A DNA stretch of 64,000 nucleotides from NCBI GenBank assembly GCA_964016885.1, contig OZ024755.1, positions 39,432,001 to 39,496,000 of the forward strand. The letters run 5' to 3'. Source of the DNA: Eledone cirrhosa (Eukaryota). The position numbers were made by a program, and so were the translations under genes. Of the stretch, positions 22,315 through 62,703 are shown in pieces (positions within the stretch are counted from its first letter, which is position 1; each line of letters begins with the position of its first letter). Below the pieces are notes generated by a model. It made no database searches. It had not been told where the DNA came from and saw only the letters and a program-made list of their open reading frames with translations.

Positions 22315-22710
22315 TTATAGTTAGAGAAGCAAAAAATTGCTTATTGTGATCCAGTTTTTGGTTAAGAAAGCCAGATTCATGGGTGGTTTCAACGTACGGT
22401 TAGGGGTAACTCCATAAGTTTGTAAGAATTCCGTTCAATGTTGGAGTATGAAGTATAAAAGAGAAAAAACACAGGTAAGCATTAAGAGAAGGATTTTATC
22501 CAGGTATTTACGACCGTTTCATTGGTAAGTGCAACCTTATATTGCTATACTTTTCAAAATAGTTTGAACATTTGGACTGTGAACAACAAGTATAATTGAG
22601 TGGCTGCTATTTGCAGTATAGCAATATAAGGTTACACTTACCAATGAAACGGTCGTAAATACCTGGATAAAATCCTTCTCTTAATGCTTACCTGTGTTTT
22701 TCTCTTTTAT
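22315..22710. mobile_element. Inverted-repeat island with 3' half of a hammerhead in each arm and one-sided tail
   Basis: 22455-22549 is the reverse complement of about 22617-22710. Arms read outward GAAACGGTCGTA-AATACC. Left tail begins CTTCATACTCC on the minus strand. Confidence 0.7.
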
Positions 22711-22961
22711 ATATATATATATAATACTATATATATATATATATATAATACTATATATATATATATATATATATATATATATATATATATATATATATAT
22801 ATATATATAATACTATATATATATATAATACTATATATATAATACTATATATATATATATATATATATATATATAATACTATATACATATATATATATAA
22901 TACTATATATATATATATATATATATATATATATATATATATATATATATATATATATATA

Positions 22962-23500
22962 GATTTTGAGTTTATGTTGGTTGTATACCAACACCTCAGT
23001 ATGCAGGCTGGAGCACTCGACGAAGTGCGCAGGTTGGTTTGGTTACTCCGGAGTAGTGTAAAATAAAGTTAAATAAAAGTCAAATGATTAAAATTTAGCT
23101 TCGTTTATTACTGCTATATATATTTCAGTGACAGCCATCTTTGGCTGTGACCTCTTCAGGCAGTTTGAATTAGTATGGTATAGACAAGTACATATGTTGT
23201 TTAGGTGTATGATATTGTCAATACTCTGATATGCCCAGTTCCTTGTTGGGTTGTTAATTCACTGGGGAACTGGAGTCATATGACTCCAGTTCCCCAGTGA
23301 ATTAACAACCCAACAAGGAACTGGGCATATCAGAGTATTGACAATATCATACACCTAAACAACATATGTACTTGTCTATACCATACTAATTCAAACTGCC
23401 TGAAGAGGTCACAGCCAAAGATGGCTGTCACTGATATATATATAGCAGTAATAAACGAAGCTAAATTTTAATCATTTGACTTTTATTTAACTTTATTTTA
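22962..23500. mobile_element. Loop-less palindrome (centre 23280/23281) carrying a hammerhead in each arm, with one-sided tail
   Basis: About 23059-23280 mirrors 23281-23500 (GGAGTCATA|TGACTCC). Tail at 22962-23058. Confidence 0.85.
23110..23164 (-). ncRNA. Minimal type I hammerhead ribozyme
   Basis: ACTGC-CTGAAGA-GGTCACAGCCA(AAGA)TGGCTGTCACT-GAAA-TATATA-TA/GCAGT. The mirror copy at 23395-23449 has GATA in place of GAAA. Confidence 0.78.
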
Positions 23501-23540
23501 TATATATATATATATATATATATGTATATATATATATATA

Positions 23541-23776
23541 GTAATAATAATAATAAATTTGAAGACTAAAATCCAAAGAAGGCTCGATAAGGATAAATAT
23601 ATATCAAATATATAAGAACCGTAGAGCAAAATATCGTCTTCCTGTCTTCCTCCGGTTGCAACGTTTTTTTGAAATATCCACTTCTGCGTTTACAGATTGA
23701 CTTTGTTAGTTTCAGAAGATCCCGTTAAGGGTGAAAGCAGCGATTTTTTGCTTAAACTTTAATCTGTTATTTTAAT
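23541..23776. repeat. Unclassified dispersed repeat (also 31691-31757, 35225-35571, 51945-52300)
   Basis: Shared AGAAGATCCCGTTAAGGGTGAAAGCAGCGATT..TTGCTTAAACTT. The 31691 copy is an internal-deletion derivative. Confidence 0.7.
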
Positions 23777-23847
23777 ATATATATATATATATATATATAT
23801 ATATATATATATATATATATATATATATATATATATATATATATATA

Positions 23848-24480
23848 TTAGAATTGGAGCTCTGAAATAGCAATATATATATGGATGTATATATAATGTA
23901 TTTTGCAATACACTTTATGCTTAATTAAAAGCATTTTGAAGACAGTATGCTATTGTTTTAGAGTAGTGACAAATTCACTTACTTTAATCTCAGCAAACAG
24001 GGGAGATAAGCCGACAAGGCCTTGTTTCGCTTTTGTTGAAGCTTATCAAGGCTAACTACCCCTCCTGTCTACTGAGATTACTGATGTTATATTCTTATAG
24101 AATTCTAAATGCTTTTAATTAAGCATAAAGTGTATTGAAAAATACATTATATATACATCCATATATATATTGCTATTTCAGAGCTCCAATTCTAATTTTT
24201 AATTTCTGCCTGACCAACAATCGCTCTGTATAATCAGTTCCTGATTATTTACTAGAATTCTATAAGAATCTAACATCAGTAATCTCAGTAGACAGGAGGG
24301 GTAGTTAGCCTTGATAAGCTTCAACAAAAGCGAAACAAGGCCTTGTCGGCTTATCTCCCCTGTTTGCTGAGATTAAAGTAAGTGAATTTGTCACTACTCT
24401 AAAACAATAGCATACGGTCTTCAAAATGCTTTTAATTAAGCATAAAGTGTATTGCAAAATACATTATATATACATCCATA
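23848..24480. mobile_element. Hammerhead element: inverted arm plus partial tandem, monomer about 317 nt
   Basis: 23848-24106 is inverted relative to 24107-24480. GCTTTTAATTAAGCATAAAG is directly repeated at 24111 and 24428. Confidence 0.8.
24298..24360 (+). ncRNA. Type I hammerhead-like motif with variant core UUGAUAA (mirror at 24000-24062)
   Basis: AGCC-TTGATAA-GCTT(CAACAA)AAGC-GAAA-CAAGGCCTTG-TC/GGCT, with stem I extendable to GGGG/CCCC. Confidence 0.65.
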
Positions 24481-59597: not shown

Positions 59598-59774
59598 TGG
59601 CAGTATCAGTAGAGGGTTGGACGCCATGCTTTCTAGCATAGTTACGTCCCTTTACGGTTTGAGTTCAAATCCCGTCGAGGTTAACTTTGCCTTTCATCCT
59701 TACGGGGTCGATAAAATAAAGTACCAGTAATGTACTAGGTAATTGCTGGCCTTGTGCCAAAAGTAGAAACAATT
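59598..59774 (+). mobile_element. tRNA-derived SINE
   Basis: Matches the family consensus. Confidence 0.85.
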
Positions 59775-61061
59775 CTCTTCTATACTTCAGCATCCTGCAA
59801 TAACTGTTCGTTGCTGAAGATGGAGGGTCTTATACAATGGTATAACACTAGTACTGCTAGTGCTGAGGCAGCTGTGATATGATCACGAATTAAAATATAC
59901 ACAGCGATAATGTGTATGTATATTAGACATAAATGTAATATATATATATATATACGCCATGTTGTGTTAGTGATATGGCTTATATCAAACACAGATATGT
60001 CGTAATTACATAATGAAGAAGGCAAAAATATCTAAATTAAATTAAATTGGACTCTTATTTCGGGAAAGAGAAGGAAGACCTAACGGCGGTGTTGGCGGTT
60101 TTCAGAGAAAAGGGAGATTCATTTCAAGATATTAGGAATAATTTCAGAGATAATTTAATAGAATTAGGGCAACATTATATTATTATCACCAGGAACATTC
60201 TCAAAGTTTGTATACCATACTTATCTCTCTCTCGCTCTCTCTCTCTTTCCTTCTCTTCCCCTCTCTCTCTATCTCTCTCTGATATATATATATATATATG
60301 TGTGTGTGTGTGTGTGTGTGTGTGTGTGTGTGTGTGTGTGTGTGTGTGTATGTGTGTGTGTGTGTGTATGTGTGTGTGTGTGTAAATTTGTAAACGCTCA
60401 TGTATATATGTGTAAACAGCGTAAACACTCATATATATACATATATGTATGTAGGGGTGTATGTGTGTGTGTCTATTTGGAGCAACAACAGCCGCACCCC
60501 CAACAGCAGCACCACCAACAACAATAATAACACCAACAACAACACCAGCAACAACACGTAGGTTTTAAAATCATTGAATAAATAACCCCGTTTTCCATTT
60601 CCCACATAAGAGATGTCGTGGAACTCCAATAAAACTTACATAAATCATTTAAGACTTAAACGAATGTTCCTTACAAACAAAACAGCTGAGAGCTCTGACA
60701 ATGTGTGACAATATACTCCAGGTTTAATGAAGACAGGCCGACGGCTGACAGATTGGTTGTTTAAGTATATACACTCTACATGTGTATTATGGGAAAGTAG
60801 AGGAAAGAACTATGAAAGCCATACATGAGAGGAAAGTGGGGAAACCAAGGAATCTAATACCACAGAAAAGGGGAGGGTGATGAGTTCTGGGAGGGATTCA
60901 AGGCTACGAATGTGATACAATTGTAGAAGTCGTTTATGATGATTCTATAATACAAGGCGTTCCAGTCGAGACCATCCATTCATAGTGTTAAAAATAAGAA
61001 ATAAAATATGGCCCCATCCCGGAGGTTCATCAGATTAGAGGTTAACCTGGTTTCTTTGGTC

Positions 61062-61433
61062 TTAACCCTTTAACATTTATATTACTCTATATATACTATT
61101 GTATTTTCATGGTAAAGGCTTTGTCTCACATAATATCTCACATAACATTTATATTGCTCTATATATACTATTGTATTTTCATCGTAAAGGCTTTATCTCA
61201 CATAATATCTCACATAACATTTATATTACTCTATATATACTATTGTATTTTTGCAGTAAAGGCTTTATCTTACACAATTGTCTCACATAATATCGAATCT
61301 ATGAGATTTTGATGTTATTTATTTTGAGAACAATACCGTAACGTCAGTATGAGCGGCCAGTTACAGTTGGTTTCAACAGAAAAAGGTGAGAGAATTCTGG
61401 CCGGATATGGCCGGTTTAAATGCTAAAGGATTA
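61062..61433. mobile_element. piggyBac-type MITE with internal 72-bp tandem repeat
   Basis: TTAA-CCCTTTAACATTTA ... TAAATGCTAAAGGA-TTAA: imperfect TIRs with TTAA on both sides. The 72-bp unit starts at 61072, 61144 and 61216. Confidence 0.65.
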
Positions 61434-61696
61434 AGTGATTGAGAGTACAGTACTCCATCCTGGATGGGGGACCAACATATCGCAAGTTTAAACCTACAAT
61501 TGCTGCTGGTACTAATATTTAGCTGAGTAAAGTTCAAGTATTTTGCTACCCGGACAAGGGATGAAACCCATGGCATTACGATTGCGTGTCCAGCATCTAA
61601 CCATTTGTTGGCGCACCTTTAATCATACAGACTGTTCTCATAAAACTACCACCTGTTATATGTGCTCAGTAAACGTCTAACTTCCAAACGTGAAAG

Positions 61697-61805
61697 TCTG
61701 ACCGGTGCTGTCCAGATGTCCAAGTCTGACCGGTGCCGTCCAGATGTCCAAATCTGACCGGTGCCGTCCAGATGTCCAAGTCTGGTCGGTGCAGTCCAGA
61801 TGTCT
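61697..61805 (+). repeat. 28-bp tandem repeat, four copies
   Basis: TCTGACCGGTGC(T/C)GTCCAGATGTCCAAG. Confidence 0.85.
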
Positions 61806-62338
61806 ACCGGTATTCGGAATTAACAAAAAAAAAAAGATGTCATATGACTGATCTATCAAACACTATCACGTGACCCGATGAAACCAATGGGCGCCCACAA
61901 TGACTCAATAATTTGCTACCATGTCTGCAATATTTGTTTACGTACACGAAACCAATGGTAATGTAAGGAGAAGTCGAACTGTTAATTCTTATGTTTACCC
62001 TCCGCATTAAGTCCTCATTGCGCTTTTCATTCGTTTGCATACACACACACTTCTATGTGTGTGTGTGTGTATGTTTGTGCGGGTGTGTATGTATGCCTGA
62101 ATATATGAACGCACACAAACACACACACACATCTATATGCGTGTGTGTATGTGTTTGTGAGCGTGTTTATGTATGCCTGAATATATTAACACACACAAAC
62201 AATCCCCCCACCGCATATATATATATATATATATATATATATAAATATATATATATATATATATATATATATATATATATATATATATATATATATATAT
62301 ATATATATGTATATATATATATATATATATATATATAT

Positions 62339-62703
62339 ACGATATTAAATAAATGGAAACTATATTTATAAAACCATATTTATTTCATTATACATATTTC
62401 AGGGATACCAAGTTAAAATATGGTATGCCTTCATCAGACAAAATACAATATATAAACAGTTTTATAAATAAATTTGACGTACCCTATTAGATGCGACCAT
62501 TATTTTTGGAAGCTGTCTGGATAGTCATACCATATTTTAACTTGGTATCCCTGAAATATGTATAATGAAATAAATATGGTTTTATAAATATAGTTTCCAT
62601 TTATTTAATATCGTATATCTACTCCAAAAACTTGTCGAGTGCTTTATATCAGTTATAAAATATTTACTTGTTGTATCCCAACAATTTTAAATAGAACTTT
62701 TGC
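62339..62703. mobile_element. Inverted-repeat island with intact hammerhead in the left arm and one-sided tail
   Basis: 62339-62427 mirrors 62527-62615. Tail CTACTCCAAAAA..TAGAACTTTT. Confidence 0.85.
62382..62444 (-). ncRNA. Type I hammerhead ribozyme
   Basis: ATTTTGT-CTGATGA-AGGCATACCA(..)TGGTATCCCT-GAAA-TATGTA-TA/ATGAAAT; stem I includes two G-U pairs. Confidence 0.75.

Follow-up and report, generated by a model that had tools for sequence, protein, structure and literature searches.

A covarying bulged hairpin lies a fixed distance from the short end in fold-back insertions that probably derive from Hydra-clade Penelope-like elements

Many fold-back insertions in the genome of Eledone cirrhosa carry a covarying bulged hairpin at a fixed offset (6–9 nt) from one of their two ends. 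The insertions were examined in a 64-kb window (assembly GCA_964016885.1, contig OZ024755.1, positions 39,432,001 to 39,496,000), the whole stretch of DNA analyzed here, and each consists of a short arm and an inverted long arm that runs on into a tail. To judge from their motifs, they are almost certainly the 5′-truncated ends of Hydra-clade Penelope-like elements (PLEs) placed head to head in (TA)n. The positions of the ends make it fairly likely that the hairpins dock the element's reverse transcriptase (RT) and that each of the two cut target strands serves as a primer for it, at a site just ahead of one of the hairpins. The inverted arms, like the tail on one side, are already known. We did not find in print the covarying hairpin, whose strands read RCTC and GAGY (R, purine; Y, pyrimidine), or its second copy; the search covered the open-access literature.

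The genome measures 3.0 Gb. The window has 33% GC, is rich in (TA)n and contains RT frames of the long interspersed element (LINE) type along with three GIY-YIG fragments. Inverted repeats were taken from a self-comparison of the window, and in sequence they consist of a short arm, a junction, a long arm and a tail, with (TA)n at both outer edges (Table 1). The tails are 17–139 nt long, mostly 60–100, and end at the second (TA)n. Arms of one repeat diverge by up to 20%, and some are >99% identical. A sequence-only reading of this DNA had described outward-facing arms, one stopping at (TA)n and the other continuing into a tail that opens with ACTC or GCTC. All 11 tail-start motifs that it quoted are present, the one at 22454 (−) being off by one base, and at each of these sites the short arm meets (TA)n and the long arm carries the tail. 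The hammerhead ribozyme cores at 23159−, 27766−, 27884+, 57431− and 62437− are of type I with a palindromic stem III, and all five face outward. The two exceptions that had been named, at 57701 and 46061, do have tails that lack RCTC, and the former is the end of another PLE clade. The tail might have been target DNA next to the insertion, but this was rejected: family members on many contigs have it in common (family A, 62340–62703, has at least 43 genome matches, with the same tail on many contigs), and thus the tail is element sequence and not target.

The same arrangement was sought in 80 stretches of 10 kb (800 kb) placed at round coordinates in this genome, 10 of which flank the window. 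To register a structure, the detector required no more than a run of TA whose flank recurs in inverted orientation. It yielded 104 rows, which fell to 59 after a complexity and arm-length filter and to 47, in 25 families, after 12 symmetric structures were dropped. In 31 of the 47 rows and 13 of the 25 families the tail has RCTC within its first 18 nt, compared with 8.2% of random sites, 10% of shuffled tails and 14% of sites inside arms (family-level binomial P = 1.5 × 10−8). Tail offsets of 6–9 account for 28 of the matches. The positional enrichment anticipated by the sequence-only reading is therefore real across families. A relaxed hammerhead core was also found in 25 of 77 detector rows from the window and other loci, which are partly redundant, and none of these cores points inward. 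Separately, inverted duplications whose full symmetry takes in the TA runs and the flanks (loci L063:3440–4320, L083 and L110 in our numbering) form a class apart from the short/long insertions. The symmetric family-A structure in L063 was rejected as an insertion type; its symmetry continues into the flanks, and it looks like a later inverted duplication.

The enriched motif is one strand of a structure. From its start, the tail reads RCTC, a variable stem-loop, a bulge of 1–2 nt (mostly TT) and GAGY. The RCTC/GAGY stem closes in 27 of the 47 rows and 10 of the 25 families, versus 1.6% at random, a count that is not fully blind because the hairpin was first noticed in a set that already held 20 of the 80 loci. 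It also closes at 8 of the 11 window sites; the stem at 22454 has no bulge, the tail at 27991 stops in the loop, and the site at 28607 has no GAGY. A strict form of the hairpin occurs 58 times in the 800 kb, compared with 1–8 times in five block shuffles, and 54 of these occurrences are followed within 150 nt by a TA run. Loop length ranges from 6 to >50 nt.

Covariation was measured in the upper stem, whose three pairs had not been selected by the search. These pairs form in 86, 84 and 84% of 37 distinct hairpins. The corresponding values in 2000 permutations are 61, 57 and 41%, with 0 of 2000 at the observed level, and the signal appears only when a 2-nt bulge is assumed. Among the same 37 hairpins, the closing pair is G-C in 28, A-U in eight and mismatched in one. 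All pairs were counted by script, since a MAFFT alignment was out of register. The earlier claim that families of different sequence share a signal just 3′ of the short end thus holds, but the signal is not a linear 4-mer; it is the 5′ strand of a covarying bulged hairpin.

The window holds a 5′-truncated coding element with this end structure (Table 1). In the loci read, its relatives have frames of 400–585 amino acids; L280 has an open frame of 722 amino acids. Each element is <3 kb and has one open reading frame (ORF) in which the RT is followed by a C-terminal GIY-YIG domain. DKT replaces DKG (L280, L128), a CxCX5C linker is present, and CxxC and CxH surround a conserved E and N (L130, L280). 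A canonical hammerhead occupies the pseudo-long terminal repeat (pLTR), and insertion is in (TA)n. These frames and motifs fit the Hydra clade as defined by Craig et al. (2021, PMC8557442), which comprises PLEs with a C-terminal endonuclease, a hammerhead and (TA)n targets. By eye, CCHH is absent from the Hydra-type frames, as expected for Hydra, and the window family resembles Hydra-1_Obim. The N-terminal motif reads RWR where the Hydra clade has RWK. Assignment of the coding element to Neptune was rejected, as its motifs fit Hydra. Pfam did not recognize the two Hydra endonuclease fragments of the window.

At least four coding families share the ends and the hairpin. Genomic relatives of a second Hydra-type family, seen in the window as a degenerate endonuclease fragment, have their own hammerhead, short and long ends, the same hairpin and a tail of ∼200 nt. 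With this one included, three coding families besides that of the window element, their endonucleases 26–32% identical to its own, have the same ends and hairpin. Family D (49053) lies behind a GIY-YIG frame in L258, and relatives of the 27661 insertion lie behind GIY-YIG frames in L102 and L047; family A was not traced to a frame. Tandem repeats of ∼40–100 nt at 26011–26560 (+) run in frame into the second endonuclease fragment.

The family of the exception at 57701 has upstream frames in L302, L304, L305 and L315 in which, by eye, a CX4CxxC finger precedes a GIY-YIG core with CCHH. By these predicted frames it is a Neptune/Nematis-type PLE, the two types not being told apart. Its tail (57697–57756) is enclosed by a GTTTC/GAAAC stem that starts 5–6 nt after the short end, and this stem is perhaps the signal of that clade.

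Relatives outside this genome carry the hairpin as well. A protein alignment of the window family with 39 of at least 120 homologues retrieved 77 metagenomic loci at 34–43% identity. Of these, 68 were examined, and nine were excluded where the match was broken or lay at a contig end. A hammerhead follows the frame in 52 of the 68, and 23 of the 52 are informative, with at least 110 nt after the hammerhead and no early TA run. The hairpin is present in 18 of the 23, 27–67 nt past the hammerhead, versus 2.7% in shuffles. Short-ended copies should lose it, and 10 of 12 loci with a TA run within 75 nt of the hammerhead indeed have none; five of 17 loci cut by a contig end still show it. The 25 hairpin-bearing loci form 19 groups at 60% protein identity. 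The published consensus sequences Hydra-2_Amil, Hydra-2_Ajap and Hydra-1_Ajap, read by eye, also contain the hairpin, the last of them twice. A search of viral contigs found no relatives.

In the element, the hammerhead is followed first by site 1 and hairpin 1, then by site 2 and hairpin 2, and finally by the start codon. Short arms stop at site 1 and long arms at site 2, and the tail is thus the stretch between the sites, beginning 6–9 nt before hairpin 1. Hairpin 2 lies ∼30–75 nt before the first ATG. Upstream of the ORF, 15 of 53 metagenomic loci have two hairpins, which are 55–83 nt apart in 14 and likely a chance match in one. In both L170 and L223, only 2 nt plus a shared TATA separate the end of the 3′ copy from hairpin 2 of the 5′ copy. 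Short-ended copies compared in this manner stop 1–7 nt, after the last shared base, before hairpin 1; several other rows of the comparison are internal TA runs, not ends. Eleven copies of the window family read through the long end into the next frame, and a second stem begins 7 nt on in 10 of them. Among the loci in hand, the long end runs into TA in 22 of 22 family A copies and 55 of 56 family D copies. The twin hairpin at the long end is well supported for four element families, and the 14 metagenomic loci suggest it more widely.

A further regularity concerns the hairpin flanks. Of 89 metagenomic hairpin matches (L161–L237; compare window positions 36424–36435 (−)), 77 have ACT directly after the closing GAGY and 40 have ACTC there, which creates the near-palindrome GAGYRCTC. 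In minimum-energy folds, the flank of hairpin 1 pairs with that of hairpin 2. It is possible that this flank pairing acts as a switch or a dimer contact.

The two ends are not used at random. All 24 family D pairs picked by core DNA and all nine pairs picked by protein consist of one short and one long end (two of the long arms end inside the tail). For these 33 pairs, chosen without reference to the tail, independent ends would give about half. Family A, picked with the tail, gave 23 short-long pairs and one nested long-long pair, and no short-short pair occurs among the called pairs. The script called no pair at six of 30 D loci (two of them pairs by eye) and at six of 30 in family A; for protein-picked loci the number was 21 of 30, and here the 1.5-kb flanks may hide a partner arm. 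Of 56 pairs, 28 have a short arm that extends further 5′ than the long arm, 11 show the reverse, and 17 have arms of equal reach; five long arms comprise the tail alone and have no overlap with the short arm. In most families the short end shares 2–5 nt with the TA target, and in a few 0–1.

Partner arms likely come from one source. They differ by 1.8 changes per 75 nt in family A and 2.5 per 45 nt in family D, whereas arms of separate insertions differ by 4.9 and 4.0, respectively (19 and 15 pairs). In family D, partner arms at first seemed to differ in allele, but this was discarded as query bias, as 0 of 19 unselected arms showed the difference. In L238–L267 and L001–L030, the 5′ truncation points cluster, those of D close to the base of hammerhead stem II and those of A at a single site, and short re-copied pieces are frequent at the junctions. 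These features suggest RT stalls and small template jumps.

The best explanation for the short/long pairing and the arm reach is that two-armed insertions arise from two priming events on opposite target strands. The sequence-only reading had assigned two such events to each insertion, which is too strong given that single-armed copies occur. The GIY-YIG endonuclease would cut both strands of (TA)n, and each target 3′ end would anneal by 2–5 nt to a UA-like patch that precedes a hairpin. Two cDNAs, whose template is probably one RNA or at least one source copy, would then grow toward each other, and joining of their ends would leave outward-facing arms. The cDNA begun at site 2 would have to pass the hybrid made from site 1 and would more often stop early. 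A more specific proposal, to which we give slightly less than an even chance, is that Hydra PLEs are programmed twin-priming elements in which a protein dimer docks two ∼20-nt hairpins, measures 6–9 nt upstream and primes both (TA)n strands.

Several observations weigh against this interpretation. RCTC is missing from 12 of the 25 detector families, some of which are decayed copies, some detector noise and some other clades, and five of the 23 informative metagenomic relatives fail the hairpin pattern. Upstream of the ORF, only one hairpin is seen in 17 of the 53 loci and none in 21, many being cut by the contig start. In nine of 11 copies, the 5′ strand of the window family's hairpin 2 contains one additional base, and this hairpin does not appear in the minimum-energy fold. 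The stability of hairpin 1 is low, mostly about −1 to −8 kcal/mol, and wobble pairs do not fix the strand (11 G-U sense versus seven antisense). The permutation test ignores kinship among hairpins. The partner arm is strictly nearest in only six of 19 A pairs and two of 15 D pairs, so a single RNA molecule is a possible rather than an established source. Moreover, the clade behind 57701 has the same architecture without the RCTC hairpin, and by eye no RCTC/GAGY motif is present in the Poseidon-Ac template shown in Fig. S1 of Frangieh et al. (2024, PMC11167929).

The best surviving alternative, though an unlikely one, is that the hairpins act in DNA. Guided by a hairpin, the endonuclease would cut a cDNA intermediate at a TA-like site 6–9 nt upstream, and the ends would be resolution cuts. 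The tail is held in PMC8557442 to come most likely from endonuclease-mediated resolution, and the tail of Penelope is reported to be needed for endonuclease recognition (cited in PMC11167929). The ends lie at TA/AT, the target of the nuclease, which would also explain the 2–5 nt shared with the target, and covariation cannot separate RNA from single-stranded DNA. However, the ends formed by Poseidon-Ac in vitro match RT start sites, not cuts (PMC11167929). The wide range of loop lengths is unlike a duplex recognition site, and the five tail-only arms, each opposite a long short-ended arm, fit two primers.

It is still less probable that the hairpins do another job (packaging, translation, internal promoter or hammerhead switch), with the ends set by UA patches and RNA accessibility and the register a by-product. 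Such a role would suit the nearness of hairpin 2 to the first ATG, the packing of hammerhead, hairpins and ATG into ∼200 nt, and the existence of another clade that shows the architecture without the motif. On the other hand, offsets peak sharply at 6–9 nt across unrelated families even though the hammerhead-hairpin distance varies over 27–67 nt, and the distance from end to adjacent hairpin is similar at the two ends.

Formation of the inverted arm by single priming followed by fold-back self-priming is very improbable. Palindromic junctions led Arkhipova et al. (2013, PMC3846280) to propose self-priming on an antisense template for Penelope, and here the arms start at about the same place in 17 of the 56 pairs, some of which are near-perfect palindromes. 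Yet fold-back of the tail-bearing strand would have to contain the short arm, which extends further 5′ in half of the pairs and fails to overlap the long arm in five. This excludes it as a general route, and fold-back of the short strand cannot make a tail. For these families, arm reach largely refutes self-priming, and the strict short/long pairing, non-nested arms and fixed hairpin offset favor two primings. Finally, we give almost no credence to an assembly artifact (fold-back reads) or to miniature inverted-repeat transposable element (MITE)-like DNA transposons with a chance AT-rich motif: some arms are >99% identical and 12 of 59 rows are symmetric duplications, but other arms differ by up to 20%, the ends are fixed across many contigs and belong to RT-coding elements, and the strict hairpin far exceeds its frequency in shuffles.

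Two-strand priming has precedents among other retroelements. Endonuclease-bearing PLEs are known to have inverted pLTRs, an optional tail on one arm and palindromic junctions (Arkhipova et al. 2013, PMC3846280), and the insertions described here resemble them in their head-to-head, 5′-truncated copies with a tail on one side only. Purified Poseidon-Ac protein cuts and extends both target strands, and two internal RT start sites bound its tail (Frangieh et al. 2024, PMC11167929). The elements studied here likewise appear to use both strands, with the tail as the interval between start sites, and need no hammerhead cleavage, as their copies span the cut site. Poseidon-Ac belongs to another clade and starts in an AC-rich stem-loop that has no target homology, whereas here there is 2–5 nt of TA homology and a repeated, clade-wide hairpin. 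In L1 twin priming, two target 3′ ends prime one RNA, and an inversion results (Ostertag and Kazazian 2001, as described in PMC2246262). This is the nearest mechanism; the elements here work like it but are not it. L1 twin priming is occasional, uses poly(A) and a variable internal start, and leaves non-overlapping parts. In the present elements, by contrast, both sites are fixed and the arms usually overlap.

For endonuclease-bearing PLEs, the tail is given as 30–40 nt (PMC8557442), compared with mostly 60–100 nt here; tail length is a usual rather than a strict trait. The term "stem-loop" does not occur in the main text of that paper, and its passages on the tail describe no tail signal. Type I hammerheads in PLEs, and opposite-strand pairs of them 100–700 bp apart, were noted earlier (PMC4209133); type I cores and a palindromic stem III in pLTRs are features shared with the elements in that report and in bioRxiv 10.64898/2026.07.22.740005. 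Unlike non-LTR retrozymes, the present copies are single or head to head, not tandem non-coding arrays, and at least four families (family A not among them) trace to coding elements. They also differ from MITE/fold-back DNA transposons in their asymmetric ends, variable inner junctions and arms that are retroelement ends.

Both start-site choice by PLEs and the origin of an inverted end with a one-sided tail are left open in the relevant parts of PMC8557442 and PMC11167929. If programmed twin priming is correct, a hairpin shared by several animal phyla would be the first cis-signal to be defined for how this sister group of telomerase chooses its start sites. It would also explain the one-sided tail and could serve as a portable tag to mobilize other RNAs. 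A hairpin that occurs twice, a fixed distance from each end, in distant Hydra elements makes start-site choice directly testable. Because PLE RTs and telomerase are sister groups, the setting of template register by an RNA structure may bear on the origin of telomerase-like templating. The hairpin is also an annotation handle for a highly abundant class of repeats: 58 strict copies per 800 kb would correspond to ∼200,000 in this 3-Gb genome, a rough figure from non-random blocks.

Table 1. Positions of PLE-derived features in the 64-kb window
Feature	Position	Strand	Details
5′-truncated coding Hydra-clade PLE (predicted)	36392–37900	−	RT fragment; CxCX5C linker; GIY-YIG 37099–36698; 3′ pLTR; hammerhead core from 36523; short-end site 36458; tail 36457–36392, then (TA)n
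Hairpin 1 of window coding element	36432–36451	−	ACTC, 4-bp upper stem, 1-nt bulge, GAGT; 6 nt past short-end site
Second copy of window element's pLTR	28686–28900	−	Hammerhead and full tail; ends at (TA)n; read by eye
Degenerate endonuclease fragment, second Hydra-type family	26723–27100	+	26% identical to first family
Fold-back, family A	62340–62703		Short arm from 62340; hammerhead 62437−; tail 62614–62703; hairpin 62621–62640 (+)
Fold-back, family A	56657–56897		Tail from 56806; hairpin 56813–56832 (+)
Fold-back, A-related	32518–32925		Tail from 32835; hairpin 32842–32864 (+)
Fold-back, family D	49053–49246		Tail from 49165; hairpin 49173–49196 (+); 3′ end of third coding Hydra-type family (L258)
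Fold-back with two outward hammerheads	27661–28007		Hammerheads 27766−, 27884+; tail 17 nt, stops inside hairpin loop
Fold-back, tail at left	22961–23500		Tail 23059–22961 (−); hammerhead 23159−; hairpin 23054–23015 (−)
Fold-back, tail at left	22315–22711		Tail 22453–22315 (−); ACTCCA/TGGAGT stem, no bulge
Fold-back	28314–28670		Tail 28608–28670; ACTC without GAGY partner
Fold-back	9453–9904		Tail from 9845; GCTC/GAGC hairpin 9852–9874 (+)
Fold-back	9924–10591		Tail from 10517; GCTC/GAGC hairpin 10528–10553 (+)
Giant head-to-head repeat	14442–21444		Arms ∼3.4 kb, 96% identical; tail 14576–14442 (−); hairpin 14571–14491; short end 21444 at (TA)n
Exception fold-back (46061)	45614–46131		72-nt tail without motif
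Exception 57701	57247–57756		Short/long architecture kept; hammerhead 57431−; tail without RCTC; 3′ end of CX4CxxC and CCHH-type PLE

The arms of the giant repeat at 14442–21444 are mostly non-coding and rich in simple repeats, yet have the expected short end together with a tail and its hairpin; the repeat is perhaps captured sequence carried by the same machinery. At 48001–48620, relatives of the 9924 family form a direct pair in which both copies have lost parts; the first has GCTC at 48199 and a decayed partner strand. An Rfam scan of the window gave no match at the gathering score among the 150 of 297 matches listed, which were microRNA models on hairpins and simple repeats. The window also contains non-LTR retrotransposon frames at 11494–14214 (+) (906 amino acids, endonuclease and RT) and 6801–8726 (−) (642 amino acids, RT), with further fragments at 2379–5416. 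A GIY-YIG fragment at 24900–25214 (−) (PF01541, E = 2.7 × 10−4) belongs to another PLE type and has a repeat resembling a short interspersed element inside it.

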